64,000 nt of DNA from Alphaproteobacteria bacterium (GTDB lineage Bacteria > Pseudomonadota > Alphaproteobacteria > GCA-2731375): assembly GCA_965225945.1 (NCBI GenBank), contig CBDDBZ010000038.1:352001-416000 (forward strand). The letters run 5' to 3'. The position numbers were made by a program, and so were the translations under genes. Position 1 is the first letter of the stretch; the number at the start of each line of letters is the position of its first letter. Below, one piece after another: positions 14,245 to 54,221 of the stretch. The notes under the pieces were generated by a model. It had not been told where the DNA came from and searched no databases. It saw nothing but the letters and a program-made list of their open reading frames with translations.

Positions 14245-14289
14245 CGCCTCCCCGCGCGGCGGAACCCCCGCACGCCGAGGCGCGCGGGG

Positions 14290-14605
14290 GAAGTGGGGGG
14301 CTTCTGTTGCCCGGCGCCCCCCGAAGCCGCGCTTACCTAGCTTTTATTAGGCAGCGAGCGCCATTTCATTATCATTGGCACCTGTAGGTTTGGTCCGGTA
14401 ACGGCAGTACCATCCCGGGCACCGAGCAGGTCTTTACCACGCACGTCGATCCTATTTCGCCCCCATCAGAAACATCCCGCCGGCCGTTGCGTGAGCGCGA
14501 TTCGCGGCCGAGATGCTCTTGGTGGAGGCGCCGGGTACCGCCCCCGGGTCCGCAACGCTTATTTCACAAGCCCGTTTAGCGCCATAACCGGTCGAAACCG
14601 GTAGG
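14290..14605 (-). ncRNA. ssrA: permuted two-piece tmRNA; tag ANDNEMALAA
   Basis: Acceptor piece ends ...GGACCCGGGGGCGGTACCCGGCGCCTCCACCA (CCA at 14520); intervening segment 14465-14519; coding piece starts GGGGGCGAAATAGGATCGAC (14464); tag codons 14379-14347. Outer ends approximate. Confidence 0.93.
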
Positions 14606-14785
14606 CTGAATATAGGGGTTCGCGGGCTTTTTCGAAAGCCCCTTGCGAATCGCGGCGGGATGGCCGCGCCCTGGCGCCCACCCGGCCCTGGCGGGAGCGG
14701 CGGCGGGGCGATAGGATTCAGCCCCCAAGCCCTGCTCGGCGGAAGCGGGCATGGGGGCGGAAGCAACATCGGGGCGGAGGCGAGA

Positions 14786-35385: not shown

Positions 35386-36063
35386 ATGGAACTTTCGGAC
35401 CAGACGGCGCGCGAATTCTACCAAGACATCAAGGCCAATCCGAACCGGGCCCGCTTCGGTTTCGGGCGCAAGGCCGCGATCGTCAATGTCGACCTGCAGA
35501 AGGCCTATACCTGCGTCGAGGAATTCAAGACCGCTTACGAAACCGATTCCCATCAGCTCGACTACGTCAACCAGATCTCCAACGCGGCGCGCGAGAAGCA
35601 CCTGCCGGTGGTCTGGACGCGGGTCGGCTACGGTGAGAACGCCGAGGACTGCGGCGTTTGGGGCACCCGCACCGACACCCCCGATTCGCTTCAGAACATC
35701 AAAATCGGCGCCCGCCGGCACGAATTCGACGACCGCCTTGAGATCGAGGAGGCGCACGATCTGGTCTACACCAAGCGCATGCCGTCGGCCTTCTTCGAGA
35801 CATCCCTGGCCTCGTTCCTGGTCTTCCATCGCGTCGACACGGTGATCGTCACCGGCGGCTCGACGTCTGGATGCGTGCGGGCGACCGTGGTCGACAGCCT
35901 GGCGCACGGCTACCGCACGATCGTTCCCGAGGAGTGCGTCGCCGACAAGCACGAGATCCCGCACTTCGCCAACCTGGCGGACATGATGCTGAAATATGCC
36001 GATGTCGTGCCGGTCGCCGACGTGATCGACTACCTGGCCGACTACCGGCCCTCCAACGCGTGA
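35386..36063 (+). CDS. isochorismatase family cysteine hydrolase (N-carbamoylsarcosine/maleamate amidohydrolase-like)
   Basis: VDLQKAY, KRMPSAFFET, GGSTSGCVRATVVD, KYADV. Confidence 0.85.
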   Translation: MELSDQTAREFYQDIKANPNRARFGFGRKAAIVNVDLQKAYTCVEEFKTAYETDSHQLDYVNQISNAAREKHLPVVWTRVGYGENAEDCGVWGTRTDTPDSLQNIKIGARRHEFDDRLEIEEAHDLVYTKRMPSAFFETSLASFLVFHRVDTVIVTGGSTSGCVRATVVDSLAHGYRTIVPEECVADKHEIPHFANLADMMLKYADVVPVADVIDYLADYRPSNA

Positions 36064-36071
36064 GGCGGCCC

Positions 36072-36983
36072 GTGCGGCGGGATCCCGGGCTCTACGACTA
36101 CACGGCGGAGAACGATCGGCCGATCGTGCGCTGGCCGAACGGCGCGCGCGTCGCCTTCTGGGTGGCGCCCAACCTGGAATTCTACGAGTTCGAGCCTCCC
36201 GACAGCCCGCTCCGCAAGCCGTGGCCCCGCCCGGTGCCCGACGTCTTGGCCTATTCGCATCGCGATTACGGCAACCGCGTCGGCCACTGGCGCATGATGG
36301 AGGTCATGGACCGTTGCGGCGTGCGTGGCAGCGTCTCGCTGAACGTCGCCGTGTGCGAGCATCACCCCGAGATCGTCGAGGCCATGGTGAAACGCGATTG
36401 GGAGTTGATGAGCCACGGCATCTACAACACCCGCTACACCTACGCCATGAGCGAGGCCCAGGAGCGGGAGATGATCGAGGACGTCATCCGGACCATCGCC
36501 GAGCATTCCGGCCAACGGGTGGCCGGCTGGCTGTCGCCGGCCCTGACCAACACCGAGCGCACCATGGAGCTGTTGGCGGAATACGGCATCAAGTACACCT
36601 GCGACCTGTTCCATGACGACCAGCCGCAGCCGGTGCGGACGACGCGCGGCCGGCTGATCAGCGTGCCCTATTCGCTGGAGATGAACGACACGGTGGTGTT
36701 GCTCTTCAACGCCGGTTCGCCCCGCTACTACGCCGAGATTCTGAAACGCCAGTTCGACCAGCTCTACGAGGAAGGGGCGGAGAACGGCAAGGTGATGTGC
36801 ATCCCGCTCCACCCCTTCCTGATCGGACAGCCGCATCGCATCGGTCCCTTCGCCGAGGCGCTGGAATACATCACCGGGCACGACGAGGTCTGGATCACCA
36901 CCGGGCGGGAAATCGCCGAGTGGTATGACGCGCATTACTACGACGCGGCCCTCGCCTTCGCGCGCGCCCGTGGGGGGGCGTGA
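36072..36983 (+). CDS. polysaccharide deacetylase family (PuuE allantoinase-like) protein 1
   Basis: WPNGARVAFWV, RDYGNRVG, ELMSHG, GWLSP, DDQP, LHPFLIGQPHR. Confidence 0.85.
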   Translation: MRRDPGLYDYTAENDRPIVRWPNGARVAFWVAPNLEFYEFEPPDSPLRKPWPRPVPDVLAYSHRDYGNRVGHWRMMEVMDRCGVRGSVSLNVAVCEHHPEIVEAMVKRDWELMSHGIYNTRYTYAMSEAQEREMIEDVIRTIAEHSGQRVAGWLSPALTNTERTMELLAEYGIKYTCDLFHDDQPQPVRTTRGRLISVPYSLEMNDTVVLLFNAGSPRYYAEILKRQFDQLYEEGAENGKVMCIPLHPFLIGQPHRIGPFAEALEYITGHDEVWITTGREIAEWYDAHYYDAALAFARARGGA

Positions 36984-37927
36984 CGATCATGGATCTGCCC
37001 GCGGACTATCTGCGCTATCCCCGCCGGATGCGCGGCATGGACCATGACCGCTACGACTGGTCGATCCTGCCGCGCCGCGACCCGGTCGTCTGGCCGGGCG
37101 GCGCCCGGCTGGCGCTTTGGGTGGTGGTGGCGCTGGAATGGTTCCCGCTCGATATGACGGGAAAACCGTTTCTGCTGCCGGGCGGTTTCACCCGGCCCTA
37201 TCCCGACTATTGGAACTACACGACCCGCGACTATGGCAACCGGATCGGCATTTTCAGGGTGATGCGGGTGCTCGACGACCTCGCCATCCCAGCCTCGGCG
37301 GCAATGAACTCGGCCTTGGCGGAGCGCCATCCGAGCCTGGTCGAGGAGATCGTCCGGCGGAAATGGGAGATCATCGCCCACGGCGTCGACATGAGCCGGC
37401 CGCTCCATGGCGCCATGGATGGAGCCGAGGAAGCGGCGCTGGTGGAAGAATCGGTGACGGTGTTGCGCCGCCTCTCCGGCCAGCCAGTCAACGGCTGGCT
37501 GTCGCCGGGCCGCTCGGAATCGCTGGACACGCCCGACATCGTCGCACGCCACGCCATCAGGTACCTTTGCGATTGGGCCAACGACGACATGCCCTACGCC
37601 ATGCGGACGGCGGCGGGCCGGCTCCACGCCATGCCGCACGGCCACGAGCTGGACGATCACCTGATTCTGGTCCGCGACCACCACGGAGAGGACTCGTTCT
37701 GCCGCCAGATCGTCGATCAATTCGATGCTCTCTACCGGGAGGCGGAGTCCGACGGCGGGCGCATCCTGGCGATCAGCCTGCATCCCTGGGTGATCGGCCA
37801 GGCGTTCCGCATCGCCTCGCTGCGCGCGGCGCTGGAGCACGTCATGGCGCACGACGGCGTGTGGGCGGCGACGGGGACGGAAATACTGGACGCCTTCGAG
37901 GCGCGGGGCGCGACCCGGGAGACGTAG
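36980..37927 (+). CDS. polysaccharide deacetylase family (PuuE allantoinase-like) protein 2
   Basis: WPGGARLALWV, RDYGNRIG, EIIAHG, GWLSP, DDMPY, LHPWVIGQ. Confidence 0.85.
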   Translation: MTIMDLPADYLRYPRRMRGMDHDRYDWSILPRRDPVVWPGGARLALWVVVALEWFPLDMTGKPFLLPGGFTRPYPDYWNYTTRDYGNRIGIFRVMRVLDDLAIPASAAMNSALAERHPSLVEEIVRRKWEIIAHGVDMSRPLHGAMDGAEEAALVEESVTVLRRLSGQPVNGWLSPGRSESLDTPDIVARHAIRYLCDWANDDMPYAMRTAAGRLHAMPHGHELDDHLILVRDHHGEDSFCRQIVDQFDALYREAESDGGRILAISLHPWVIGQAFRIASLRAALEHVMAHDGVWAATGTEILDAFEARGATRET

Positions 37928-37976: not shown

Positions 37977-38230
37977 TCATCTAGGACGCCGAGGTCGCCA
38001 TGCAGGCGGCGCTTCAGGGCCGAGGCGTGGCGCGCGGCGTGGCACCCACCACCGGCTGGGCGATGAAGGCGATGACGCTCGCCTCGCCCAACGCCTCGAT
38101 CTTGGTCTCCAGCTCGTCGGCGACGCGCAGGCCGTGGGCCACCTCGCTCTCGCCGGCCTGCTTGAAGCGGTAGGGAAAGCGGGCTGAGATGTGGTGCGCC
38201 GCAATCAACAGCGGCTCGTCGGTGCAATTC
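37977..38230 (-). pseudogene. internal fragment of a class III aminotransferase
   Basis: EPLLIAAHHIS..FPYRFKQAGESEVAHGLRVADELETKIEALGEASVIAFIAQPVVGAT; no N-terminus, decays after GAT. Confidence 0.65.
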
Positions 38231-38307
38231 ATTTTTTTGGAAAGCTCTTCGCCTCGCGCTAGCTGCGAGTTTAGAATGCCTCGTGGTCCACCTAGTAGGA
38301 GGCGCGA

Positions 38308-39468
38308 TTGGGCATCCGCGATGTCCATCTGGCCATCGTCATGTTGGCGATCGTCGGATCGGCGGCTGTCTTGGCCTCGCCGTGCTGGGCAGAACAAGAC
38401 GCCGACCCGGTTCGTCGAGTTCAGGAACGTCTGATCGGAGCTGGATATAGGCCGGGTCCGACGGGTGACGTTATGCAGCCTCGGACAGGTAAAGACCTAT
38501 GTGCCCTCCAAAGTAAGGAGGGTATGCCGCCGCACGGCAATGTCGACGTTTGGACAAAGCGGTACCTCGTCGTCGCGGCGCGATCCGCGTCAAGGGCCTG
38601 GCCTACCCCAGGTTCGGGTGAAGTGTCACTGGCATTGCGACGGATACAGCAGCAGTTGGCACTGTTGGGCCATGATCCGGGACCGGCCAACGGCATGTTG
38701 GGCCTCAAGACGCGTAGTGCGATCCGACGCTTCCAAGAGAGTCAAGGCTTGCCGCCGACAGGTGAGCCGGACGATTTGACGAGGGCCGCCCTGGCTTCCA
38801 AAGCGGGCAAGGCATCGTCGCGTAGGGTAGGTGCCGCGTCGGGAGAAGTGTCGATTTGGACATACCAGGCGCAGAAGAAGCTGAAGTCGCTTGGCTACGA
38901 TCCGGGAGCGATCAACGGTGTCATGTCTCGGAAGACACGAGCAGCGCTGATCAGGTTCCAAGAAGTTTCAGGCCTCAAGTCGTCCGGTGACATCGATTCG
39001 GCGACGAGAGCGGCGCTGGACGGGGCGGAACCGATCGCGCTGCCGCTTTCCACTGGCGGAGCCGAAGGACAGGTCGCAAGGATGCCGACCGACGATGCCG
39101 CCCCCGTCGACGTCGCGGCGACGCCGCCCGGGTCTGCCGTGCCGTCGATCACGCCGGATGCGACAACGGCGTCGTCGGTGGCGGTTTCGCCAGCACCGAC
39201 GACATCGGGGCGGGCGGTTCAATCGTCAGGCGAACGCGCCGCGCCTGGTTCCGAGTCGAGTGGTGACGAGGGCGGCGGTGGTGGCGCGGCGATCTGGTTG
39301 TTGTTGGGCGTTGGTGCGCTCCTGCTGTGGTTTTATCGCCGGCGTCGAAAGCGGCGTCGCGCCACGGCCCCGCGAGTAACGAGGTCTAAACCCGAATCCC
39401 TTGCCCGAACCTCCGAGCCCACGGCGACCAACGCGAAATCCACAACCTGCGCGCCGGCGCCAGAGTAA
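38308..39468 (+). CDS. signal peptide + three peptidoglycan-binding repeats + TM helix (N-terminal half of a split SngA-like protein)
   Basis: AGGAGG RBS then TTG; IQQQLALLGHDPGPANGMLGLKTRSAIRRFQESQGLPPTG and AQKKLKSLGYDPGAINGVMSRKTRAALIRFQ repeats plus one degenerate copy; AAIWLLLGVGALLLWFY followed by RRRRKRRR. Confidence 0.8.
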   Translation: MGIRDVHLAIVMLAIVGSAAVLASPCWAEQDADPVRRVQERLIGAGYRPGPTGDVMQPRTGKDLCALQSKEGMPPHGNVDVWTKRYLVVAARSASRAWPTPGSGEVSLALRRIQQQLALLGHDPGPANGMLGLKTRSAIRRFQESQGLPPTGEPDDLTRAALASKAGKASSRRVGAASGEVSIWTYQAQKKLKSLGYDPGAINGVMSRKTRAALIRFQEVSGLKSSGDIDSATRAALDGAEPIALPLSTGGAEGQVARMPTDDAAPVDVAATPPGSAVPSITPDATTASSVAVSPAPTTSGRAVQSSGERAAPGSESSGDEGGGGGAAIWLLLGVGALLLWFYRRRRKRRRATAPRVTRSKPESLARTSEPTATNAKSTTCAPAPE

Positions 39469-39550
39469 CGAGGTCTAAACCCGAATCCCTTGCCCGAACC
39501 TCCGAGCCCACGGCGACCAACGCGAAATCCACAACCTGCGCGCCGGCGCC
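39374..39550. repeat. 88-bp perfect tandem duplication, period 89
   Basis: 39374-39461 identical to 39463-39550. Confidence 0.95.
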
Positions 39551-39590
39551 TCGGGGGGATCTCTGGGTTCCTGCGGGAAAATCCGCCAAA

Positions 39591-41555
39591 GTGGCCGGAC
39601 TCCAGATCGGTGGCATGGTCTACGTCGGTCGCGGCTTGGATACGGACCGCCTGGCTCGGGTCGAAAACTGCTTGATCGACCCTTCGCTCCCCGTCGCCAA
39701 GGGGCAGGCAGATAGTGGCGGTGAGTACATGCCGTACTGGCCCAGCTATTCGGACATCTCCCCGTCTTCGAGACTTGCATATCTCCAGTGGCTCGCCTCG
39801 GGGCGTTCGTCTCCAGACGTCTCTATCGGCTATGTCTTTCTCTACTTCTATGGGTTGGAACGTCGCCTACTGCTAGACCGGCCGAGCGAGGACGAATGCC
39901 GCGCGTTGATAGCCGAAGTTGAAAGGCTGCGCGGGATCTATGGGAGCAGTCGATCATTCAAACGCTATTCCGAGGCGTTGTTGGGCGCTGCGGAGGTGCT
40001 CAGACCCGAGGGCGCGATCACCAGGCCGAATTCCGAAGCGCTATTGAACCGCACGGACTGGGAACCGCCGTTATCGTTACTTCTCGATCTGGGCAAAACG
40101 ATCCTCTCGGGTCGACCCTTGGACGGTCAACAGCTCTTTTGCTGGTGGCTCGCCGACCCCGACACGCGCTTCCGTACACCGGCCCGCCGTGCCTTCCAGG
40201 GATTCGAAATGCTTTTTCAATCGCGGTTCGCGCGGGAACATCCGAATGGGCTGTCTATTAAAACGCCAAAGTCGCGATTGAAGCACGTCTATCGATCGGC
40301 CAGCGGTTCGTTCGAGAGGAATTTCGCGGATGAACTGAACTGGTGCTCCGACGTATCTCGGCTAAAGAAGCCGCTGAAAACGGCGGCCGAGATCGCCGAA
40401 ACCTGCATGAACGACCTCGACTCATATAGCCGTTATCTCGGCCGCAAACCGGAGGGCCGCGACACCATAGAGGCGCACGCATTGTTGCCCGCCGAACTTG
40501 CCGCCATGCTGCCGAACACGGAATTGCAGGCGCTCCGGGCCTGGGTCGATCGATGTATAGCGGATGCCGACGGTCTGGTCCGCGTCGAGCAGGTGCTGGA
40601 GCGATTGGAAGGGGAACAACCGCTAAAGGTCGGCAAAAGGTCGTTGGTCGGCGCGGCGGATGTGCTCGCGCGTGTCGGAATTGGCTTGGCGCCCGATCCG
40701 CGGTTCGCGATTCGGGCGCCTAAGCTCGGCGAACCGGTCGTTCTCTTCGAGCTGCCCGAGGAAACGACGACGTTGGAGGACGTCGGTCCGGGTTACGCGA
40801 GCGCGGTGCTCTCACTCGCCCTCGGTACGTATATCGCGCATGCGGACGGCATCGTCTCGGAAATCGAGCGGGAGCGTCTCGCGGCACAGATCGACCGTAT
40901 GGAGATTCTGTCGAAGGGCGAGCGGGCGAGGCTGCACGCGAATCTGCAATGGATGATAGCGGTACCGCCGACCTTGGCGCCGGTACGCAAGCGACTGTCC
41001 AGACTGCCCGAAGAGCAGAAGCACGAACTCGGTCGCATCGCCATCGCCATCGCCGGCGCCGACGGGGTGGTCGATCCGGCCGAGGTCGATGCGTTGCTCA
41101 AGCTGTACCGCGTCATGGGACTGCCGCAAGACGAGATCTTTGGCGACCTGCACGCGATGGCTTCGGCCCCCGCCGAAGAGCCGGTGACGGTTCTGAAATC
41201 CTCGGGACATTCGTCTGGCTATGCGATTCCCGAACCGAAGGGGACGGGGGGCCCGGGACCAACGGGAACGGTGCAGCTCGACCTGGCTCTCGTCCAGAAG
41301 ACCATGGAAGATACGAACCTGGTCTCGGCCGTGCTGTCCGAGGTTTTCGTAGCCGACATACTGGAAGAGGAATCGGAACAGGAGGCCGACGACGGCGACG
41401 CGGAAGCGACGAAACTCGATGGTCTCGACGCTTCTCACAGGGCACTCCTCGAAGAGCTGCTGACCCGGACGTCGTGGAACGCGATCGACTTCGCCAAGCT
41501 GGCCGGACATTTCGGATTGATGAGCGGACGGTGGAACGCTCGACTTCGACGCTGA
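39591..41555 (+). CDS. TerB_N-TerB-TerB_C protein (Shango SngA-like)
   Basis: GGMVYVG, YWPSYSDISP..R.AYL.WLASGR, IGYVFLYFYGLERR, AHADGIVSEIERE, AGADGVVDPAEV; the C-terminal WAFETFDEPLLE lies just past a TGA. Confidence 0.85.
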   Translation: MAGLQIGGMVYVGRGLDTDRLARVENCLIDPSLPVAKGQADSGGEYMPYWPSYSDISPSSRLAYLQWLASGRSSPDVSIGYVFLYFYGLERRLLLDRPSEDECRALIAEVERLRGIYGSSRSFKRYSEALLGAAEVLRPEGAITRPNSEALLNRTDWEPPLSLLLDLGKTILSGRPLDGQQLFCWWLADPDTRFRTPARRAFQGFEMLFQSRFAREHPNGLSIKTPKSRLKHVYRSASGSFERNFADELNWCSDVSRLKKPLKTAAEIAETCMNDLDSYSRYLGRKPEGRDTIEAHALLPAELAAMLPNTELQALRAWVDRCIADADGLVRVEQVLERLEGEQPLKVGKRSLVGAADVLARVGIGLAPDPRFAIRAPKLGEPVVLFELPEETTTLEDVGPGYASAVLSLALGTYIAHADGIVSEIERERLAAQIDRMEILSKGERARLHANLQWMIAVPPTLAPVRKRLSRLPEEQKHELGRIAIAIAGADGVVDPAEVDALLKLYRVMGLPQDEIFGDLHAMASAPAEEPVTVLKSSGHSSGYAIPEPKGTGGPGPTGTVQLDLALVQKTMEDTNLVSAVLSEVFVADILEEESEQEADDGDAEATKLDGLDASHRALLEELLTRTSWNAIDFAKLAGHFGLMSGRWNARLRR

Positions 41556-41673
41556 ACGACGGTGCGCTGGGCCTTCGAGACCTTTGACGAGCCGCTGTTG
41601 GAGGAAGACGACGAGTTGACGGTCAGCACCGCGATCGTCGAGTTCCTGACATACCCGACGAGGAGGGAACCAG

Positions 41674-42999
41674 ATGACGCGACCCAACATCAGACCGCGT
41701 GAACGTGACGTCATCCTACAAGCACTCCGGGCCGGTGTCGTTCCGAAGCTCGGCCTCAGACACATCCAAGTCGGGCGAGCACGCGAAGTCCATGAGATGG
41801 TCCGAGACATGGAGCGCATCGACGATGCGGGCGCCACGATCCGTTTCGTCATCGGTGAATATGGCTCGGGCAAGACGTTCTTCCTGAATCTTGTGCGGCT
41901 AATCGCGCTGGAAAAGGGGATGGTCGTCATGTCGGCCGATTTGGCGCCGGACAGACGGCTGCATGCGAGCGGTGGTCAGGCTCGGTCGCTCTTCGCGGAA
42001 ATGACCCGCAATCTCGCGACGCGTTCGAAGCCCGATGGCGGCGCGCTACCCAGTGTCGTCGAGCGCTTCGTCACCCAGGCCATTCGAGAAGCCGGTGACG
42101 ACGACGTGCAAGAGGTCATCCGCGCGAAGCTGGCGCACCTGGAGGAACTGGTCGGCGGCTACGAATTCGCCTCCGTGATCGCCAGATACTGGCAGGGACA
42201 CGAGGAAGGCAACGAGCAACTGAAATTGGATGCCTTGCGCTGGCTTCGGGCCGAGTTTGCCACGCGTACCGATGCCCGCAACGCGCTCGGCGTGCGCACC
42301 ATCATCGACGACCGGAGCGTCTACGATCACTTGAAGCTGTTCTCGGCCTTCGTCCGCCAAGCCGGCTATCGCGGTCTCGTCATCGTGATCGATGAGCTCG
42401 TCAACCTCTATAAGCTCTCGAACAGTCAAGCGCGGAACGCCAACTATGAACAGATCTTGCGAATCCTCAACGACGTCTTGCAGGGCACCGCTTCCCACCT
42501 CGGTTTTCTGCTCGGGGGCACGCCGGAATTCCTGATGGACACGCGGCGCGGTCTCTACAGCTATCAAGCGCTGCAATCGAGGTTGGCGGAAAACACCTTT
42601 GCTCGCGACGGATTGGTCGACCTCTCCGGCCCCATTGTCCGATTACAGAACCTTTCGCCGGAGGATCTTTACGTTCTCCTCACCAATGTCAGGAACGTTT
42701 TTGCGGGAGGAGAGGACGCCGAAACCAGCGTACCGGACGATGCGTTGAAGGCTTTTATGACACATTGCTCCGAGCACATCGGTGATGCTTATTTTCGAAC
42801 GCCGAGGAATACGGTCACGGCATTCGTAAACTTGCTGTCGGTTATCGAGCAGAACCCAGGCACTGACTGGCAACAACTAATCGGCGATGTCGACATCGGC
42901 CATGACATGGGTGATGATTTGAGCGATATCGTCGATCATGAAGGCGAACGGGAACCGACGTCGAGCGATGACGAGCTCACCTCCTTCAAACTCCGCTGA
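41674..42999 (+). CDS. DUF2791 P-loop ATPase (Shango SngB-like)
   Basis: ILQALRAGVVPKLGL.HIQVGR, Walker A GEYGSGKT, Walker B VIVIDE, GLYSYQALQSRL. Confidence 0.88.
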   Translation: MTRPNIRPRERDVILQALRAGVVPKLGLRHIQVGRAREVHEMVRDMERIDDAGATIRFVIGEYGSGKTFFLNLVRLIALEKGMVVMSADLAPDRRLHASGGQARSLFAEMTRNLATRSKPDGGALPSVVERFVTQAIREAGDDDVQEVIRAKLAHLEELVGGYEFASVIARYWQGHEEGNEQLKLDALRWLRAEFATRTDARNALGVRTIIDDRSVYDHLKLFSAFVRQAGYRGLVIVIDELVNLYKLSNSQARNANYEQILRILNDVLQGTASHLGFLLGGTPEFLMDTRRGLYSYQALQSRLAENTFARDGLVDLSGPIVRLQNLSPEDLYVLLTNVRNVFAGGEDAETSVPDDALKAFMTHCSEHIGDAYFRTPRNTVTAFVNLLSVIEQNPGTDWQQLIGDVDIGHDMGDDLSDIVDHEGEREPTSSDDELTSFKLR

Positions 43000-45268
43000 C
43001 CTCGATCGCGATAACGTGGCACGGACCTCTTCCAGTTTCGAGCTGTTGGCGCCACCGATCCAACAATGGATATGGCGACAGCGGTGGCGTGACCTCAGAG
43101 ATATCCAAGAGCGCTCGATACCCGTCCTCTTGCGGGAGGACACGGACGTCATAATTTCGGCCGCCACCGCTGGTGGAAAGACCGAAGCCGCCTTTTTGCC
43201 GTTGCTGTCCAGAGTCGTGACTTCGGAACGCTCCCGTCAAGGCTTCGACCTCCTCTACGTGAGCCCGTTGAAAGCGCTCATCAACGACCAATTCCGCCGC
43301 CTCGACGAGCTTTGCGAGATCATCGAGGTGCCGGTGCACCGATGGCATGGCGACGTCTCGGCGAGCGCGAAGGCAAAGGCACGGAAAAATCCGGCCGGGG
43401 TGCTGTTGATCACGCCGGAATCGCTGGAGGCGATTTTCGTGCGTCGCGGCTTGGAGGTGCCTGGCCTCTTCGGCGGGCTCGACGCCGTCGTCATCGATGA
43501 ATTGCATGCCATGCTGGGCACCGAACGTGGCGTTCACCTCAGATCGTTGCTTTGCCGTATCGAGACCACCACCGGGCGTCGGGTGCGACGCATCGGTCTC
43601 TCCGCGACTCTCGGTGACATGGCGTTGGCGGCGGCTTTTCTGCGGCCGGAGGCGCCGGACGACGCCGAAATTCTAAAAAGCGCGTCCGGGGAGCAGGAAC
43701 TAAAGCTGCAGCTCAGAGGTTACGTCGTCCGCAGGCACCCGAAGGGCACGAACGGGGTCCAGCGGCGCGATGCCGGAGAGACCGAAGACGGGGAAGCCGA
43801 CGAGGCGACGGAGCGTGCCATCGCCAAGCATCTGTTCGAACACCTACGGGGATCGCAGAACCTGATCTTCGCCGGATCGCGTGGGAACGTGGAACTCTAT
43901 GCCGATCGGTTGAGGCGGATGTCCGAGGCGGCGCGTTTACCCAACGAGTTCCACGCCCACCATGCCAACTTGGCCCGAGATCATCGTGAGTTCGTGGAGG
44001 CCCGGCTCAAGAGTGCCGAGGAACCGACGACCGCCGTCTGCACTTCCACGTTGGAACTCGGCATAGACATCGGCGAAGTGGCGGGTGTCGCCCAGATTGG
44101 CCCGCCTTACTCCGTCGCGAGCATGCGCCAACGACTCGGACGTTCCGGCCGTCGCGCCGACATTCCCGCGACCATGCGGGCTTACGTCCAGGAAGATGAG
44201 ATCGACGCGAGGAGCGATTCGCTCGACGCCCTGCGCCTACGGATGGTGCAGACCGTGGCCATGATCGACCTCCTGATCGACGGCTGGTGCGAGCCCCCGG
44301 TTAGGCAGGCGCTGCACCTTTCGACCTTCGTGCATCAGGTCCTATCGGTCATCGCGGAACGGAACGGTGCCACGCCGAGAACACTCTTCGATCTCCTATG
44401 TACCCGTGGCGCCTTTCAGGCGATCGATCAACCGCTCTTTCTCGATGTTCTTCGCTGCATCGGCAATGCGGACGTCGCGTTGATCGAGCAGTCGCCGGAT
44501 GGCACGCTTTTGCTGGGCGCCGTCGGCGAGCGCTTGGTCGAGCACTACGGCTTCTATGCCGTGTTCTTGTCACCCCAGGAATATAGGGTCGTGGTGGAAG
44601 GACGGCCTCTCGGAACGCTGCCGATTACCTTTGTGGTGATCGCCGACATGACCATTATATTTTCCGGTCGACGTTGGCGCGTACTCGATGTGGACGACAA
44701 AGCGAAAGTCATCGACGTGACGCCCGATCCAACCGGCCACGCGCCCAGGTTCGGAGGCGACGCGGGGGACGTGCACGATTGCGTCGCGAAAAAGATGTTC
44801 GCGGTTTACCAAGGTGAAGTCGTCCCACCCTATCTGGACGCGACGGCCCGCGAGTTACTGTCGGAAGGCCGCGCGACCTTCCAGCGCATGGGTCTCGATG
44901 ATGCTTCCATGGTTTCGTTGGATCAGCAACGGAGTTTGCTCTTCCCCTGGCACGGTACCGTGGCGATCGAGACCCTGACCTTGGCGTTGGTCGCGGCCGG
45001 ACTGAAGGCCGCGCCACGCAAACATATCGCGATCGAGGTGGAGGCCGGCCCTCAGGACGTTTCGAAAGTCTTGTTCGAACTATCGAACGGGCCCGTGCCG
45101 TTTTCGATCGAACTCGCCGCGCATGTGCGCAATCTGGAGCGGGAAAAATACCACGTGTACTTGAATCGGCGTCTGTTGCAATTGGACGTGGCTTCGGGTC
45201 GAATACGGCCTGAAATCGTCCCGAATTTGGCGGTACGGCTCCAGTCCGGTCTCCCGTCGGCAGAATGA
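42968..45268 (+). CDS. Lhr-like DEAD/DEAH helicase (Shango SngC-like)
   Basis: ATAGGKTEAAFLP, SPLKALINDQ, DELH, LSAT, TSTLELGIDIG, QRLGRSGRR. Confidence 0.9.
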   Translation: MTSSPPSNSADLDRDNVARTSSSFELLAPPIQQWIWRQRWRDLRDIQERSIPVLLREDTDVIISAATAGGKTEAAFLPLLSRVVTSERSRQGFDLLYVSPLKALINDQFRRLDELCEIIEVPVHRWHGDVSASAKAKARKNPAGVLLITPESLEAIFVRRGLEVPGLFGGLDAVVIDELHAMLGTERGVHLRSLLCRIETTTGRRVRRIGLSATLGDMALAAAFLRPEAPDDAEILKSASGEQELKLQLRGYVVRRHPKGTNGVQRRDAGETEDGEADEATERAIAKHLFEHLRGSQNLIFAGSRGNVELYADRLRRMSEAARLPNEFHAHHANLARDHREFVEARLKSAEEPTTAVCTSTLELGIDIGEVAGVAQIGPPYSVASMRQRLGRSGRRADIPATMRAYVQEDEIDARSDSLDALRLRMVQTVAMIDLLIDGWCEPPVRQALHLSTFVHQVLSVIAERNGATPRTLFDLLCTRGAFQAIDQPLFLDVLRCIGNADVALIEQSPDGTLLLGAVGERLVEHYGFYAVFLSPQEYRVVVEGRPLGTLPITFVVIADMTIIFSGRRWRVLDVDDKAKVIDVTPDPTGHAPRFGGDAGDVHDCVAKKMFAVYQGEVVPPYLDATARELLSEGRATFQRMGLDDASMVSLDQQRSLLFPWHGTVAIETLTLALVAAGLKAAPRKHIAIEVEAGPQDVSKVLFELSNGPVPFSIELAAHVRNLEREKYHVYLNRRLLQLDVASGRIRPEIVPNLAVRLQSGLPSAE

Positions 45269-45489
45269 ATTTACCGGCCAGCTTCCTTTGCCGTCAGACT
45301 TATGCGTTATGAGGTGCGGAGAATTCGGCTTATCGCCCGGACTTTGGCAAGTGATGTGCGTCGAGCTTCGTAATTTCCGGCTGGTGTCTCGATCCCCCCG
45401 ACTGAACCACCCGCTCGCCCCTCTCGACCCCCGGGCGAAATCGTCCGATCATGGCCCCCTAGGACCCGCCGAGGAGGACACGCCGCACC

Positions 45490-48718: not shown

Positions 48719-49855
48719 GTGTTCCGATCCTAACAAAAGTTTCCCAAAGGGCTTGCGTTCTGCGATTCTGGGGGAATGACGAAGACATTGGCATGCATCT
48801 GGCTGTCTCCCGCGGAGCGGGTGACGCTGGAAGGGTTGGTTTCTGGGCGGAACACGCCGCAGAAGCTGGTTTGGCGGGCACGGATAGTGTTGCTGTCGGC
48901 TGACGGGATCGGCACGATGACGATCGTCCGGTTGGTCGGCAAAAGTAAGGTGACGGTGTGGCGCTGGCAGGAGCGCTACCTTGCCAAAGGCATCGCCGGA
49001 CTGCGCCGCGATGCGACGCGACCGGGACGCAAGCCGCCGCTGAGCGCCGAGGTGATCGAGCGGGTTGTGCATAAGACCTTGCACGAGACGCCGGAGGCGG
49101 CGACGCATTGGAGCATCCGCAAGATGGCCCGTGCCGTCGGCCTCAGCTACACCAGCGTGCAGCGGATCTGGAAGGCGCACGGCCTCAAGCCGCACCTGGT
49201 GAAGACCTTCAAGCTGTCGAATGACGAGCACTTCGTCGAGAAGGTGCGCGATATCGTCGGTCTCTATCTCGATCCGCCGGACAAGGCGCTGGTTCTCTCG
49301 GTCGACGAGAAGAGCCAGATCCAGGCGCTCGACCGCACACAGCCCGGCTTGCCGATCAAGAAGGGCCGAGCCGGCACCATGACGCATGACTACAAGCGCC
49401 ACGGCACGACGACATTGTTCGCCGCGCTCGACGTCGCCACCGGCAAGGTCATCGGCCACTGCATGAAGCGGCACCGCCATCAGGAATGGCTGAAATTCCT
49501 GCGCCGTATCGACGCCGAGACGCCCAAGAAGCTCGACCTGCATCTGATCGCCGACAACTACGCCACCCACAAGCATCCCAAGGTCAAGGCGTGGTTGGCA
49601 AAACATCCTCGCTTCCATATGCACTTCACTCCGACATCCGCCTCCTGGCTCAGCCAGGTCGAACGCTTCTTCAGCCTGATCACCAGCGATCAAATCCGTT
49701 GCGGCGTGTTCAAGAGCGTCGCCGAACTCGAAACAGCCATTCAGAAATACCTCGAGCACCACAATGCCGATCCAAAACCCTTCGTATGGACCGCTTCCGC
49801 CACCGCCATACTCGAAAAAGTCGCTCGTGGGCGACAGGCGTTAGAGTCGGTACAC
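48719..49855 (+). mobile_element. IS630-family element, copy 1
   Basis: Ends GTGTTCCGATCCTAA / TTAGAGTCGGTACAC; TA duplicated at 48717-48718 and 49856-49857. Confidence 0.92.
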
Positions 49856-49858
49856 TAG
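48776..49858 (+). CDS. IS630 transposase
   Basis: VDEKSQIQAL, HDYKRHGTTTLFAAL, IADNYATHK, SWLSQVERFF. Confidence 0.93.
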   Translation: MTKTLACIWLSPAERVTLEGLVSGRNTPQKLVWRARIVLLSADGIGTMTIVRLVGKSKVTVWRWQERYLAKGIAGLRRDATRPGRKPPLSAEVIERVVHKTLHETPEAATHWSIRKMARAVGLSYTSVQRIWKAHGLKPHLVKTFKLSNDEHFVEKVRDIVGLYLDPPDKALVLSVDEKSQIQALDRTQPGLPIKKGRAGTMTHDYKRHGTTTLFAALDVATGKVIGHCMKRHRHQEWLKFLRRIDAETPKKLDLHLIADNYATHKHPKVKAWLAKHPRFHMHFTPTSASWLSQVERFFSLITSDQIRCGVFKSVAELETAIQKYLEHHNADPKPFVWTASATAILEKVARGRQALESVH

Positions 49859-49989: not shown

Positions 49990-51440
49990 GGCGATGTCCC
50001 GCCCAATGTTGAAAAGTGCGAGATAGGCATCGTCTGATCGAGAGGCTACGCGGCCACCTCGATGTCTTCAATGACGGACTTTGCTCCGGCCTTTCTCACC
50101 GCCTCCCGCAGGGCGGCGTCAAGGACGGGGAGCTGGCGGTAGGCCTTGAGGCGGCGGAAGGTCTTTTGCGCCTCCAAGAGGCCGGCGGCGGTCCAACGCA
50201 GCGCCATCTCGGCGTTGCGCCAGCGCTTGACGTTCCGCTGCACCGTCCGGACGGTGCCGATCGCGTTCTCGATGGCGTTGGTGCAAGCCAGCGAGTGTCG
50301 AAGTTGCGGCGGGAGGCCGAGCCGGATCACGGTCAGGATCTCGTCCAGGCCCTCCAGGATCGAGCCCGAGACGCCGGGTGCGTCATGCTCCAGACGGCGG
50401 GCGAGGTTGCGCAAGAGCCGTTCGGCCTTGGCCGCGTCGTCCTGCTGCCAGGCCTGCCGCAAGACCTTCCTGACGCCGGCATGGAGGCTCTCGTCCAGCC
50501 GGTCCGTGATGTTGCGCCCCTTGTGCACCTGGCAGCGCTGGAGGGCCGCCGCCCGCCCGAAGGTCCGCCGGATCGCCTTCGAGAGCGCCTTGGCGCCGTC
50601 GACGATGTAGAGCCGAGGCCGTTCGGGATCGAGACCGCGCTCGATCAGGTTGTCGAGCATGGCTTGCACCGTGGCCGCGTTCTCCGTCGCGCCCTCGGCC
50701 AGGCCCAGCACGTGCTTCGCGCCGCCGGTGTCGATGCCGATCGCCGCCACCATCAGGTGATCGCCGACATGGAGCCCGTCGATCTGGAGCACCACGAGAT
50801 CGAGATCGTCGAGCGGGCTCGCCAGCCAGGCCTTCAGCTTGCTTCGCGTCAACGCCACGAAACGGCGCGAGACCGCCGACTTCGAGGTTGCGTCACCCGA
50901 TGCCGCCGGCAGATCGCCGCCCGCATCGTCCGGCAGGCGCACCGCGCGGGCATACTTGCGGGTCGAGACGTTGATCACCATCAGATTCATCGCCCAGGCT
51001 TGCAAGAGTTCGGGTTCCGACAGCAGCTCCCAACTCGGCAGGCTCATCTCCCGACCCGCGAAGTCCCGCACCCGAGGGCGCTCGACCTTCACTTTGCCGC
51101 CGTGGTAGGCGATCTCGCTCCGGGTCGTGCCCCATCGATGGCCCTTGCGCTCGCCCGAGCGGGCGTGGCGCGAACCGCACAAGGCTTCCGCGTCCGCCGA
51201 CATCATCTCGTTCAAAGACTCGAGGCCCGCCAAAAGGCAGAAGCGATCGACGCTCATGCGCAGATCGTCGAAGGCCTCCGGCATCGATGGCAAGAGCCGA
51301 CAGGATGGTTCCGAGGAACGGTCGTTGCGTGTAGTCTTGGTCATGGCGTCGTTCTCCTTGATGGAATCAGCACCCAGAGCCTAGCGGCTCCAGGCGGACG
51401 ACGCCTACTTCAGCTTTTCAACAGAGCCCGGGACATCCCC
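49990..51440 (-). mobile_element. IS256-family element
   Basis: IRs GGCGATGTCCCGCCCAATGTTGAAAAG / CTTTTCAACAGAGCCCGGGACATCCCC; 8-bp TSD TATCAGGC at 49982-49989 and 51441-51448. Confidence 0.92.
50046..51344 (-). CDS. IS256 transposase
   Basis: VSTRKY, SKSAVSR, QIDG, IVDGAKAL, QRCQVHKGRN, TNAIE. Confidence 0.92.
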   Translation of the reverse strand: MTKTTRNDRSSEPSCRLLPSMPEAFDDLRMSVDRFCLLAGLESLNEMMSADAEALCGSRHARSGERKGHRWGTTRSEIAYHGGKVKVERPRVRDFAGREMSLPSWELLSEPELLQAWAMNLMVINVSTRKYARAVRLPDDAGGDLPAASGDATSKSAVSRRFVALTRSKLKAWLASPLDDLDLVVLQIDGLHVGDHLMVAAIGIDTGGAKHVLGLAEGATENAATVQAMLDNLIERGLDPERPRLYIVDGAKALSKAIRRTFGRAAALQRCQVHKGRNITDRLDESLHAGVRKVLRQAWQQDDAAKAERLLRNLARRLEHDAPGVSGSILEGLDEILTVIRLGLPPQLRHSLACTNAIENAIGTVRTVQRNVKRWRNAEMALRWTAAGLLEAQKTFRRLKAYRQLPVLDAALREAVRKAGAKSVIEDIEVAA

Positions 51441-51702: not shown

Positions 51703-53142
51703 ATGAGCGTGGAGCGGCGGCAAGGCGGTGTTTATCAACTGGACCTTTTTGACGAGGCCCTGATGAAGACGCTGCGCCCCGAGGCCTCCGGTGACGGCGG
51801 AACCGGAACTGGACCCTGCGAGGAGCCACAAGCGGTCACGGCGTTGGAACAGCAACGAGCCTTGACGCAAGACCTGATGGAACGGGTGGTGAGTTCAGCC
51901 AACCTGAGCCAAGCCTACAGGCGGGTGAAGGCGAATAAGGGGTCGGCGGGGGTGGATGGGATGACCATCCTAGACCTACGGCCCTGGCTCGCCGATCACA
52001 AGGATACGCTGGTGGCGCAGTTGGCCCGAGGCGGTTATCGGCCACAACCGGTGAAGGGGGTCTCGATTCCCAAGCCGGGGGGCGGGATGCGGCAATTGGG
52101 CATCCCGACGGTGCTGGACCGTCTGGTTCAGCAAGCCATCCTGCAAGTCCTTCAGCCAATTCTCGATCCGGCTTTCTCGGGTTCGAGTTTTGGCTTCCGT
52201 CCGGGACGGAGCGCCCACGATGCTCTGGCCCAAGCAGGCAAATACGTCGCCGAAGGCCACGGGATCGTGGTCGACCTGGATTTGGAGACGTTCTTCGACC
52301 GGGTCAAGCACGACATTCTGATGTCCCGACTGGCTGGGCGCATTGGCGACAAGCGCCTGCTGCGCATCATCCGGCGTTTCCTGCAAGCGGGGATGATGCA
52401 AGCCGGCGTCTGCATCCGGCGCCATGAGGGTACGCCGCAAGGCGGCCCGCTGTCGCCGCTGCTGGCCAATCTTCTACTGGACGACCTGGACCAGATGCTG
52501 GAGGCGCGGGGCCATCGCTTCTGCCGTTACGCCGACGATGTGAACATCTATGTTCGCAGCCAGGCGGCGGGCGAACGGGTGATGGCCTCGGTGGCCAAAT
52601 TCCTCCAAGGCAGGTTGCATCTTCAGATCAACCAGGAGAAAAGTGCCGTCGCTCCGGTCTGGGAACGCAGGTTCCTCGGCCACCGACTTTTGCCGGATGG
52701 ATCGCTCGGCATTGCGCCCCAAAGCCTGCGGCGGGCGAAGCAACGGGTTCGCGAAATCACCCGGCGCAACCGGGGCGTCAGCCTCGCGCGCATGGTCGGC
52801 GAGCTGAACAGCTTCCTCGCCGGTTGGGTGACGTATTTCCGCCATGCCCGTTGCGGGAGACAACTACGGCGTCTCGACGGATGGATCCGCCGAAAACTGC
52901 GCTGTGTCCGGCTCAAGCAATGCAAGCGCACCAAGGCGCAAGCGGATTTTCTGCGAAGCCTTGGGGTGCCCGAATGGCGGGCATGGATCTTGGCTCTCTC
53001 CGGCAAGGGCTGGTGGCGCAAGTCCCTCAGCCCCCAAGCCACCGAGGCCATGACCCTGGCTTGGTTCGACGGCCAGGGGCTCATCCCCCTAGCCGACAGG
53101 TTCCGAGCGTTGCAACTAACCGGAAACCGCCATGGTACGTAG
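51703..53142 (+). CDS. ltrA: group II intron reverse transcriptase/maturase (no endonuclease domain)
   Basis: NKGSAGVDG, RQLGIPTVLDR, FGFRPGRSAHDA, GTPQGGPLSPLLAN, RYADD, GWVTYF; start uncertain. Confidence 0.92.
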   Translation: MSVERRQGGVYQLDLFDEALMKTLRPEASGDGGTGTGPCEEPQAVTALEQQRALTQDLMERVVSSANLSQAYRRVKANKGSAGVDGMTILDLRPWLADHKDTLVAQLARGGYRPQPVKGVSIPKPGGGMRQLGIPTVLDRLVQQAILQVLQPILDPAFSGSSFGFRPGRSAHDALAQAGKYVAEGHGIVVDLDLETFFDRVKHDILMSRLAGRIGDKRLLRIIRRFLQAGMMQAGVCIRRHEGTPQGGPLSPLLANLLLDDLDQMLEARGHRFCRYADDVNIYVRSQAAGERVMASVAKFLQGRLHLQINQEKSAVAPVWERRFLGHRLLPDGSLGIAPQSLRRAKQRVREITRRNRGVSLARMVGELNSFLAGWVTYFRHARCGRQLRRLDGWIRRKLRCVRLKQCKRTKAQADFLRSLGVPEWRAWILALSGKGWWRKSLSPQATEAMTLAWFDGQGLIPLADRFRALQLTGNRHGT

Positions 53143-54221
53143 TGTACCGACTCTAACGCCTGTCGCCCACGAGCGACTTTTTCGAGTATGGCGGTGGCGG
53201 AAGCGGTCCATACGAAGGGTTTTGGATCGGCATTGTGGTGCTCGAGGTATTCCTGAATGGCTGTTTCGAGTTCGGCGACGCTCTTGAACACGCCGCAACG
53301 GATTTGATCGCTGGTGATCAGGCCGAAGAAGCGTTCGACCTGGCTGAGCCAGGAGGCGGATGTCGGAGTGAAGTGCATATGGAAGCGAGGATGTTTTGCC
53401 AACCACGCCTTGACCTTGGGATGCTTGTGGGTGGCGTAGTTGTCGGCGATCAGATGCAGGTCGAGCTTCTTGGGCGTCTCGGCGTCGATACGGCGCAGGA
53501 ATTTCAGCCATTCCTGATGGCGGTGCCGCTTCATGCAGTGGCCGATGACCTTGCCGGTGGCGACGTCGAGCGCGGCGAACAATGTCGTCGTGCCGTGGCG
53601 CTTGTAGTCATGCGTCATGGTGCCGGCTCGGCCCTTCTTGATCGGCAAGCCGGGCTGTGTGCGGTCGAGCGCCTGGATCTGGCTCTTCTCGTCGACCGAG
53701 AGAACCAGCGCCTTGTCCGGCGGATCGAGATAGAGACCGACGATATCGCGCACCTTCTCGACGAAGTGCTCGTCATTCGACAGCTTGAAGGTCTTCACCA
53801 GGTGCGGCTTGAGGCCGTGCGCCTTCCAGATCCGCTGCACGCTGGTGTAGCTGAGGCCGACGGCACGGGCCATCTTGCGGATGCTCCAATGCGTCGCCGC
53901 CTCCGGCGTCTCGTGCAAGGTCTTATGCACAACCCGCTCGATCACCTCGGCGCTCAGCGGCGGCTTGCGTCCCGGTCGCGTCGCATCGCGGCGCAGTCCG
54001 GCGATGCCTTTGGCAAGGTAGCGCTCCTGCCAGCGCCACACCGTCACCTTACTTTTGCCGACCAACCGGACGATCGTCATCGTGCCGATCCCGTCAGCCG
54101 ACAGCAACACGATCCGTGCCCGCCAAACCAGCTTCTGCGGCGTGTTCCGCCCAGAAACCAACCCTTCCAGCGTCGCCCGCTCCGCGGGAGACAGCCAGAT
54201 GCATGCCAATGTCTTCGTCAT
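52623..54221 (-). CDS. IS630 transposase copy 2, reading through the element end
   Basis: Same protein as copy 1 with a few substitutions; the target supplies TAC rather than TAG, so the ORF extends antisense into the RT gene. Confidence 0.75.
   Translation of the reverse strand: MTKTLACIWLSPAERATLEGLVSGRNTPQKLVWRARIVLLSADGIGTMTIVRLVGKSKVTVWRWQERYLAKGIAGLRRDATRPGRKPPLSAEVIERVVHKTLHETPEAATHWSIRKMARAVGLSYTSVQRIWKAHGLKPHLVKTFKLSNDEHFVEKVRDIVGLYLDPPDKALVLSVDEKSQIQALDRTQPGLPIKKGRAGTMTHDYKRHGTTTLFAALDVATGKVIGHCMKRHRHQEWLKFLRRIDAETPKKLDLHLIADNYATHKHPKVKAWLAKHPRFHMHFTPTSASWLSQVERFFGLITSDQIRCGVFKSVAELETAIQEYLEHHNADPKPFVWTASATAILEKVARGRQALESVHYVPWRFPVSCNARNLSARGMSPWPSNQARVMASVAWGLRDLRHQPLPERAKIHARHSGTPRLRRKSACALVRLHCLSRTQRSFRRIHPSRRRSCLPQRAWRKYVTQPARKLFSSPTMRARLTPRLRRVISRTRCFARRRLWGAMPSDPSGKSRWPRNLRSQTGATALFSWLI

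Follow-up and report, generated by a model that had tools for sequence, protein, structure and literature searches.

How does the anti-phage system Shango perceive an infection, and can one of its subunits reach the cell wall? The question is raised by a locus at positions 38308-45268 of a 64,000-nt stretch of DNA, termed the window below, from the Alphaproteobacteria bacterium assembly GCA_965225945.1 (contig CBDDBZ010000038.1, positions 352,001 to 416,000). Shango has been described as a system of a 'TerB-like' protein, an ATPase and a helicase. For Pseudomonas aeruginosa PA14, the published work shows protection against several phage families, and it cites another study for an approximately 10-fold protection by E. 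coli Shango. A role in membrane surveillance has been proposed on the basis of the TerB domain. Shango is thus a validated system, yet the published accounts, in their accessible parts, give no trigger or mechanism beyond this suggestion. In the window, the TerB protein (SngA) appears to be joined to an exported peptidoglycan (PG)-binding module, and the gene for it is split in the assembly. We consider it probable that the Shango operon is intact in the organism, that its SngA is a single-pass inner-membrane protein of 1096 amino acid residues (aa) with a wall-binding ectodomain, and that the interruptions of the gene are artefacts. A conserved SngA subfamily that is built across the inner membrane in this way would give Shango a testable link to the envelope.

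Identification of the Shango operon

Four open frames on the + strand fill the locus (Table 1). The first two are pieces of sngA, and the other two are sngB and sngC. The proposal, made from the sequence alone, that a TerB protein, a DUF2791 ATPase and a helicase together represent Shango was confirmed by PADLOC. The SngA profile matched the TerB-containing piece with an E-value of 7.8e-71, and the matches of the SngB and SngC profiles are given in Table 1. When one TGA codon is read through, positions 30-521 of the 528 positions of the SngA profile can be aligned. The SngB match covers residues 1-439 of the protein and positions 1-438 of the 439 in the profile, and the identity of SngB across 33 homologs is 66-75%. 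The ATPase has a Walker A motif (GEYGSGKT, aa 61-68) and a Walker B motif (VIVIDE, ending at aa 241). The helicase has motifs II (DELH, aa 187), III (SAT, aa 222) and VI (QRLGRSGR, aa 398). The open frames of all three genes overlap. The stop codon of intact sngA (TGA, 41700-41702) overlaps the start of sngB by 29 nt, and the 776-aa open frame of sngC overlaps sngB by 62 nt. The sngC start is uncertain, as other close assemblies call proteins of 712 or 729 aa and residue 31 is the first to be matched by the SngC profile. Judged by sequence, the three adjacent and co-oriented genes are the SngA/SngB/SngC operon of Shango, in agreement with every feature that could be tested.

The next-best PADLOC families were BrxD for SngB (E 1.9e-47) and BrxHI for SngC (E 1.6e-117). 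The matches point to an ATPase-helicase module that is shared with type 2 BREX, but the Sng profiles score much higher. The comparison with BREX covered BrxD and BrxHI. With canonical Shango (PA14, E. coli), the locus has in common the TerB_N-TerB-TerB_C protein, the PF10923 ATPase, the DEAD/DEAH helicase and the arrangement as three co-oriented genes. It differs in that SngA has about 385 additional residues at its N-terminus. Canonical SngA was compared by its description and profile only, and in the PADLOC SngA profile the start of the match is preceded by no more than about 29 positions. A sequence search of the PDB gave no match for SngB, and for SngA it matched the PG repeat alone.

The N-terminal extension of SngA

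The sequence-only reading had placed a signal peptide, three PG-binding repeats, a linker, a transmembrane (TM) helix with a basic tail, the TerB region, the ATPase and the helicase along the locus, and all of these were recovered at the same places. The first frame (38308-39468) starts with TTG and encodes 386 aa. On this frame, the Pfam profile PG_binding_1 (PF01471) matched with E 8.9e-37 and 125.5 bits, far above the gathering cut-off of 23, so that the repeats do score as PG-binding domains. On an intact counterpart of 1096 aa, P0124, which is introduced below, the score is 121.7 bits. Pfam delimits three stretches at E 0.01 and two at E 0.001. A hidden Markov model (HMM) of our own, built from the PG domain of homologs, recognised all three repeats (Table 1). 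Repeat 1 enters the Pfam set at E 0.01 only, and has a low predicted local distance difference test score (pLDDT). Repeat 2 gave a phmmer match to the PG-binding domain of SltB3 (5ao8, E 2.5e-5). Repeat 3 is the repeat that is common to all fused homologs.

Export and membrane insertion are predictions from hydropathy, translation and a helix in the AlphaFold2 (AF2) model. The 17-residue hydropathy of the N-terminus peaks at aa 8 with a value of 2.46. For the TM segment, the peak of 2.16 is at aa 326, and the 12 residues that follow include eight K/R and no D/E.

The interruption of sngA

Two lesions split the gene. In lesion 1, a stretch of 88 nt occurs twice in identical form (39374-39461 and 39463-39550), with a single additional A between the copies at 39462, and the borders are without microhomology. 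The net gain of 89 nt causes a frameshift and leads to a TAA stop codon at 39466-39468. The prediction that removal of one repeat unit restores the gene was correct in that in silico deletion of 89 nt yields a single open frame of 1052 aa, ending with TGA at 41553-41555. However, the natural length appears to be 1096 aa, and the second lesion (41527-41567) had been missed. Lesion 2 garbles about nine codons and creates the premature TGA at 41553-41555, beyond which the same frame resumes a recognisable TerB_C until TGA 41700-41702. TerB_C in the frame of the assembly (39591-41555) is shortened (E 4e-11, profile positions 16-111 of 148). The gene calls of the deposited assembly, on its 562,657-bp contig, are pieces of 386 and 646 aa.

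Both lesions are most likely errors of this single assembly, and not mutations. P0124 is an intact protein of 1096 aa that derives from independently assembled contigs of public runs, of at most 8113 bp. It shares a 90% cluster with the 386-aa and 646-aa pieces from the window. Residue for residue, it is identical to the reading of the window without the two lesions, including three residues that set the strain apart from another counterpart, P0003. The stretch is present in ten public runs from four studies, and the four of these runs that have an uncoded organism label are all labelled as sponge metagenome. Contigs of one run per study (X1, X5, X7 and X9) were compared with the window over 38000-45400. 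In all four runs, contigs join position 39373 to 39463 and thus have a single copy of the unit. The copy-to-copy junction of lesion 1 is present in no contig of the four runs. The 15 extra bases of lesion 2 are absent in the three runs that cover 41527-41562 (X5, X7 and X9), and in X1 a loose contig end at this lesion reads the intact version. Apart from the lesions, the 8113-bp contig of X5 has no difference from the window over the compared region. The identity with P0124 and the single copy in four of four runs support the earlier proposal that the PG/TM and TerB modules belong to one gene.

Perfect duplications are frequent elsewhere in the same genome. In its 39 contigs, Tandem Repeats Finder (TRF) detected 65 two-copy tandem arrays with a period of at least 40. 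In 28 of them, the copies are 100% identical, and the periods are blind to the reading frame (8/11/9 arrays by period modulo 3), whereas the 37 imperfect arrays favour multiples of three (19/12/6). Such a spike of perfect, frame-blind duplications would be expected from a technical cause. Dropping one copy extends an open frame by at least 100 aa in 8 of 32 out-of-frame arrays. A perfect 50-bp duplication on another contig (C39:367779-367878) interrupts a conserved gene with a product of about 1030 aa, and the counterpart of this gene, P0147 (99.4-99.6% identical), is intact and codes for 1032 aa. The perfect duplications in this genome have the appearance of a recurrent assembly error, one that will lead to false split genes in annotation.

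Several points weigh against the assignment of both lesions to assembly errors. The contigs of the runs are Logan contigs, which are presumably built from 31-letter words, and the words of the single-copy form all occur in the duplicated form. In principle, a real tandem duplication could be collapsed in such a contig, which makes the joint between 39373 and 39463 weaker than it looks. This objection does not apply to lesion 2, for which specific words exist. In addition, minority variants are lost from contigs. Moreover, the 690-aa SngA calls from two other long assemblies of close strains (P0003 and P0126) begin at the same internal ATG as the call in the present assembly, and sngA may also be interrupted upstream in these assemblies. 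Both proteins have an intact C-terminus, and they cluster without an N-terminal fragment from their assemblies. The X7 and X9 contigs, which carry the P0003 and P0126 alleles, are continuous across the site of lesion 1.

Alternatively, the duplication and perhaps the 3' lesion could be real in the strain. The gene would then be a recent pseudogene, or it would give rise to an exported, lipoprotein-like PG-binding piece and a cytoplasmic TerB piece, and the Shango copy would be decaying. The deposited assembly with its two lesions and two gene calls would be explained directly, as would the 690-aa calls from the same internal ATG, and contigs from 31-letter words could hide a true tandem repeat. 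Loss of mobile defence operons is common, and there are transposases 3.5-9 kb downstream. We nevertheless regard real lesions as unlikely. Lesion 2, despite its own words, is absent from X5, which is otherwise identical to the window, and from X7, X9 and X1, while P0124 is intact and contigs cross the unit of lesion 1 unbroken in every run. The contrast between the 28 perfect, frame-blind duplications and the 37 imperfect ones argues in the same direction, and five separate small insertions within 41 nt would be an odd mutational pattern. The gene is thus probably not truly broken, as the lesions are absent in independent contigs. It is very improbable that the perfect 88-nt duplication acts as a reversible on/off switch of a costly defence gene, operated by slippage or recombination: perfect tandem repeats of about 88 nt are unstable in bacteria, and a mixed population would give a duplicated long assembly together with single-copy short-word contigs, as seen, but no contig has the copy-to-copy junction, the borders lack microhomology and one filler base lies between the copies, 27 similar perfect duplications in unrelated places of the genome point to a technical cause, and a repeat at the duplication site is found in none of the fused homologs examined.

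The fusion among SngA homologs

With sngA taken as one gene, its architecture was compared in two sets of homologs. The first contained the 120 top-ranking matches listed for the TerB part, and the second the loci of the best 80 of 487 relatives, with one genome per species. PF01471, TerB_N, TerB and TerB_C occur together in 19 of the 120 proteins (878-1017 aa), and a Pfam rescan of P0124 and these 19 fused homologs found all four domains in 20/20. Among the 80 species loci, our HMM detected a PG domain in the same open frame as TerB_N in 15, and a separate PG-binding open reading frame (ORF) in none. This rules out that the PG-binding and TerB genes are always separate. In five fused loci that were analysed with Pfam, the four domains were present in all five. 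As predicted, intact homologs with the same fusion are found next to the ATPase and helicase genes. The sngB gene is directly downstream in 15/15 fused loci, and sngC is present in 14/15, the exception being at a contig end. The PG-binding/TM and TerB modules, as annotated in these genomes, form one gene in nature, and the fusion is real and recurrent.

Across all 80 loci, sngB follows in 77 and sngC in 73. Some operons are decayed or variant. In L059, sngB is upstream of sngA. L055 and L016 have a sngB fragment and no sngC though the contig continues, and L044 has only the C-terminal part of sngB.

The 80 loci are from Alphaproteobacteria in 67 cases, and the rest are scattered. The fused loci are all alphaproteobacterial (15/15) and come from four named orders, with one record that names no order. 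The cultured strains in which the fusion is intact include Cohaesibacter celericrescens H1304, Azospirillum sp. 412522 and Hyphomonas beringensis 25B14_1. In a FastTree tree (677 core columns), P0124 belongs to a starred group of nine rows with three other PG-bearing rows, and this group is nested in a starred group of 19 rows, of which 11 are PG-bearing. The PG label changes 12 times on the tree, compared to 18.8 times when shuffled, and truncated gene calls make up part of these changes. Relatives of the TerB part were found in 676 plasmid records, and none of these matches covers the PG part. A search for proteins of similar length identified no close standalone relative of the 386-aa piece, the best match being a generic PG-binding protein with 32% identity.

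The PG_binding_1 repeat is present three times in the protein from the window and once in each of the 19 other fused proteins. Other N-terminal modules among the 120 listed homologs are TM2 (six proteins) and bPH_3 (four proteins), and many other SngA relatives have one to three N-terminal hydrophobic segments. Going by the domain assignments, the SngA proteins of this clade have several membrane modules that are interchangeable at the N-terminus, and PG_binding_1 is one of them.

The sequence-only reading had regarded the architecture as undescribed. This holds for its discussion in the literature, as no description of a PG-binding SngA was found in a search that did not extend to the paper defining TerB-N and TerB-C or to supplementary files on Shango. 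It does not hold for databases: the fused architecture is not rare, and is present in public protein collections with Pfam labels, apparently undiscussed. The sole literature match for TerB together with peptidoglycan-binding was about terbium. TerB-N and TerB-C were reportedly defined in 2012 by Anantharaman, Iyer and Aravind, whose abstract is said to mention TerB-linked membrane sensory complexes with OmpA domains.

Predicted topology, fold and subunit contact

The arrangement of hydrophobic segments is conserved among the fused proteins. The start motif of TerB_N was identified in 18 of the 20 fused proteins, and in all 18 the stretch from the PG domain to TerB_N includes a hydrophobic segment, with three to eight K/R in the 12 residues after it. 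An N-terminal hydrophobic segment is present in 17/20, and the other three proteins begin inside the PG domain.

The AF2 model of P0124 has a mean pLDDT of 69.5. Repeat 3 and TerB_C (1002-1080) are predicted with confidence, the region 390-920 is also well predicted, and residues 326-352 are modelled as a helix. A wide VIA-align comparison covered mainly residues 180-242, 798-857 and 1002-1082. In this comparison, repeat 3 superposes on SleB, SltB3, CtpB, L,D-transpeptidases and phage endolysins, with Z 9.4-10.1 and a root-mean-square deviation (rmsd) of 1.3-1.7 over 59-63 residues. The values are Z 10.1, rmsd 1.7 and 63 residues for SleB (6tci), and Z 10.0, rmsd 1.5 and 59 residues for SltB3 (5anz). 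Foldseek matches on the PG domain have an rmsd of 0.6-1.1 over 54 columns and a probability of 1.0, with E 0.4-4 for the 1096-aa query, and the full P0124 model gave no Foldseek match at E 0.001 or better. TerB can be superposed on the tellurite-resistance protein 2ou3 (VIA-align Z 9.4, rmsd 4.8, 133 residues). Winged-helix-like matches of TerB_C (Z 6-7) were set aside, as they are within the range that VIA-align calls common.

Co-folding of SngB with residues 620-1096 of SngA gave a score of 0.47, which is weak by the calibration of the tool, and the best of three controls scored 0.00. This mark is reached by 58 of 80 solved complexes and by 2 of 110 mismatched pairs. Scores of at most 0.60 comprise only 7 of the 80 solved complexes, and both of the mismatches that pass. 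The runs, made with our own alignments, agree in at least 66% of the contacts, and the partner pLDDT is at least 68.

Comparison with other envelope-associated proteins

Repeat 3 belongs to the same fold and sequence family as the PG_binding_1 domains of wall enzymes (SleB, SltB3, CtpB, L,D-transpeptidases and endolysins). There, the domain serves to target an enzyme that is periplasmic or extracellular, whereas in SngA it would be joined across the membrane to an enzyme-free cytoplasmic scaffold. A bitopic inner-membrane protein with a periplasmic PF01471 domain is also known from type II secretion, where ExeA/GspA has a cytoplasmic P-loop ATPase. Its orientation is opposite, with the N-terminus inside and the C-terminus outside, and its role is in secretin assembly.

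Among defence systems, Zorya is described as a PG-binding membrane complex that is coupled to cytoplasmic DNA-targeting effectors and that responds to perturbation of the envelope in phage invasion. ZorAB with ZorC/ZorD is thus similar to the predicted Shango variant in having a periplasmic PG-binding part on an inner-membrane component and DNA effectors in the cytoplasm. It differs in that Zorya is an ion-driven 5:2 motor whose coiled-coil tail is long, whereas SngA would be one bitopic polypeptide with PG_binding_1. In a PADLOC search at E 0.01, neither piece of SngA matched a Zor profile. The 386-aa piece had no match, and the TerB piece matched SngA only. As far as profiles can tell, the resemblance is functional only, and not a matter of homology. 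Bunzi BnzA is another membrane-attached defence protein with a TerB domain for which membrane surveillance has been proposed. It is part of another system with other partners, and the accessible text on it mentions neither a PG-binding ectodomain nor a pair of BrxD-like ATPase and helicase.

Possible role of the ectodomain

The N-terminal hydrophobic segment, cleaved or anchoring, would export the three PG_binding_1 repeats to the periplasm. The flexible linker would lead to the one TM helix with its strongly basic cytoplasmic flank, and the region of TerB_N, the middle part, TerB and TerB_C would be in the cytoplasm. In such an arrangement, the ectodomain would tie SngA to the sacculus, and the TerB scaffold would keep the SngB ATPase and the SngC helicase where phage DNA enters. 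From the domain order, we infer that a tethering role of this kind is rather likely. The ectodomain might also sense. The lysin or injection machinery of a phage tail might cut or displace peptidoglycan, and the wall-bound repeats might then lose or change their hold. The disturbance of peptidoglycan or membrane at phage entry might be passed through the TM helix, and might release or activate SngB and SngC on the incoming DNA. This sensing role is pure inference, and we regard it as doubtful. By analogy with Zorya, it is conceivable, although rather unlikely, that this Shango subtype is triggered through its PG-binding ectodomain and that SngA is a one-polypeptide counterpart of ZorAB. If true, N-terminal modules (PG_binding_1, TM2, bPH_3 or a plain TM segment) would set the envelope cue that is read by each Shango subtype, and there would be a first handle on how Shango senses infection.

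Several observations count against a membrane-spanning, wall-bound Shango with a sensor function. PG binding, membrane insertion, anti-phage activity and signal transfer are predictions from sequence and models only. Repeats 1 and 2 have low pLDDT, and repeat 1 is weak in sequence. The support of the co-fold for a contact between SngA and SngB is weak. Of the 96 listed proteins with the TerB_N start motif, nine have fewer than 60 residues ahead of it and no hydrophobic segment. Together with the short lead of the PADLOC profile, these extension-free relatives indicate that the PG/TM module is not needed for Shango as such. Finally, PG_binding_1 is familiar mainly for the targeting of wall enzymes, and not for sensing.

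The main rival to sensing is therefore simple anchoring. The PG module may only place or immobilise SngA, at the lateral wall, at the septum or in an oligomer, and recognition of the trigger may be left to TerB_N/TerB or SngB/SngC in the cytoplasm. We consider this a plausible alternative, to be held tentatively, which fits the free exchange of N-terminal membrane modules. It draws on the typical use of PG_binding_1, since the structural matches are all hydrolases, transpeptidases and endolysins, on the relatives that swap in a plain TM segment, TM2 or bPH_3, which suggests that any membrane attachment suffices, and on the nine proteins without hydrophobic segment. On the other hand, Zorya shows that sensing can involve a membrane component that binds PG, and the repeat is tripled in the protein from the window but single in each of the other 19 fused proteins, a hint of selection on wall binding itself.

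It has also to be considered that the operon may not be primarily anti-phage in this organism, but may be a module for envelope stress or for the control of DNA uptake that belongs to the Ter family in a wider sense. TerB was first linked to tellurite and stress resistance, the neighbouring ORFs lack other defence genes (see below), and the literature search found no anti-phage assay of any PG-fused member. This explanation is quite improbable, as for each of the three genes the Shango profile scores far above every other PADLOC family, and as the PA14 and E. coli systems, by the published accounts cited above, do protect against phages. The low G+C content and the patchy spread, with no matches in 40 relatives and matches in 676 plasmid records, would fit a mobile defence cassette.

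Features of the locus

Table 1. Coordinates of the sngABC operon and of its predicted parts in the window
Feature	Positions	Strand	Basis and remarks
Shine-Dalgarno-like AGGAGG	38297-38302	+	5 nt ahead of the sngA TTG; direct reading of the sequence
sngA, predicted natural form of 1096 aa	38308-41702	+	Split in the assembly into 38308-39468 and 39591-41555 by two lesions
Signal-peptide-like N-terminus, aa 1-28	38308-38391	+	Hydrophobic core aa 8-24, ends in CWA|E; translation
PG_binding_1 repeat 1, aa 36-88	38413-38571	+	Own HMM 1.2e-8; weakest of the three
PG_binding_1 repeat 2, aa 111-165	38638-38802	+	Own HMM 8.4e-21; best Pfam stretch aa 110-162
PG_binding_1 repeat 3, aa 187-240	38866-39027	+	Own HMM 3.1e-25; pLDDT 88-97
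Pro/Ala/Ser/Thr/Gly-rich linker, aa 241-326	39028-39285	+	Translation; pLDDT <50 for aa 244-327
Predicted TM helix (about aa 327-343), then RRRRKRRR (aa 344-351)	39286-39360	+	Hydropathy; AF2 helix 326-352
Lesion 1, tandem duplication	39374-39550	+	TRF period 89, 2.0 copies, 100% matches
TerB_N, aa 392-596 of the intact protein	39570-40184	+	Pfam 6.5e-50 on P0124; 2e-48 on frame 39591-41555
TerB, aa 806-913	40812-41135	+	Pfam 1.6e-9 on P0124; 6e-10 on frame 39591-41555
TerB_C, aa 958-1077	41268-41642	+	Pfam 2e-24 on P0124, profile positions 16-145 of 148
Lesion 2, 15 extra bases	41527-41567	+	Five small insertions (1+3+4+1+6 nt) relative to other assemblies
sngB, BrxD-like P-loop ATPase, 441 aa	41674-42999	+	PADLOC SngB 1e-177; Pfam PF10923 BrxC_BrxD 9.5e-154
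sngC, superfamily 2 (SF2) helicase, 776-aa open frame	42938-45268	+	PADLOC SngC 8.6e-269; Pfam DEAD + Helicase_C

Genomic context

The G+C content of the operon is 0.58-0.65, compared to 0.66-0.71 in the flanks, and the TerB part of SngA has matches in 0/40 related genomes. The lower G+C content and the absence from relatives point to a horizontal origin, and the operon was most likely acquired in this way, as far as composition and distribution can indicate. The SngA profile also had no matches in 14 control genomes. Flanking direct or inverted repeats that would mark an insertion were not found, and a promoter and terminator scan at the operon gave no more sites than in shuffled sequence.

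The locus had been called a defence island. In the Pfam scan of the 15 neighbouring ORFs, no other defence genes were identified. Where a Pfam domain was present in these ORFs, it was either metabolic or that of a transposase, and the others were without a match. Rather than an island of several defence systems, the locus is one operon among metabolic genes. Upstream of sngA, there are two overlapping polysaccharide deacetylase genes (PF01522) at 35871-36983 and 36980-37927 on the + strand. Neither of the two was present near Shango in 80 other loci, and the adjacency is probably a coincidence. Downstream of the operon, there is an acyl-CoA-synthetase-like gene, and the transposase genes are at 48776-49858 (+), 50046-51344 (-) and 52623-54221 (-). 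Two of them are IS630-like (DDE_3 + HTH) with the same domain layout, and flank a transposase gene of the Mutator family.

The host is sponge-associated and probably an alphaproteobacterium. The window also contains a transfer-messenger RNA (tmRNA) gene at 14256-14614 on the - strand, with the tag peptide ANDNEMALAA. ARAGORN marks it with an asterisk, which we take to denote a permuted tmRNA, as would fit an alphaproteobacterium.

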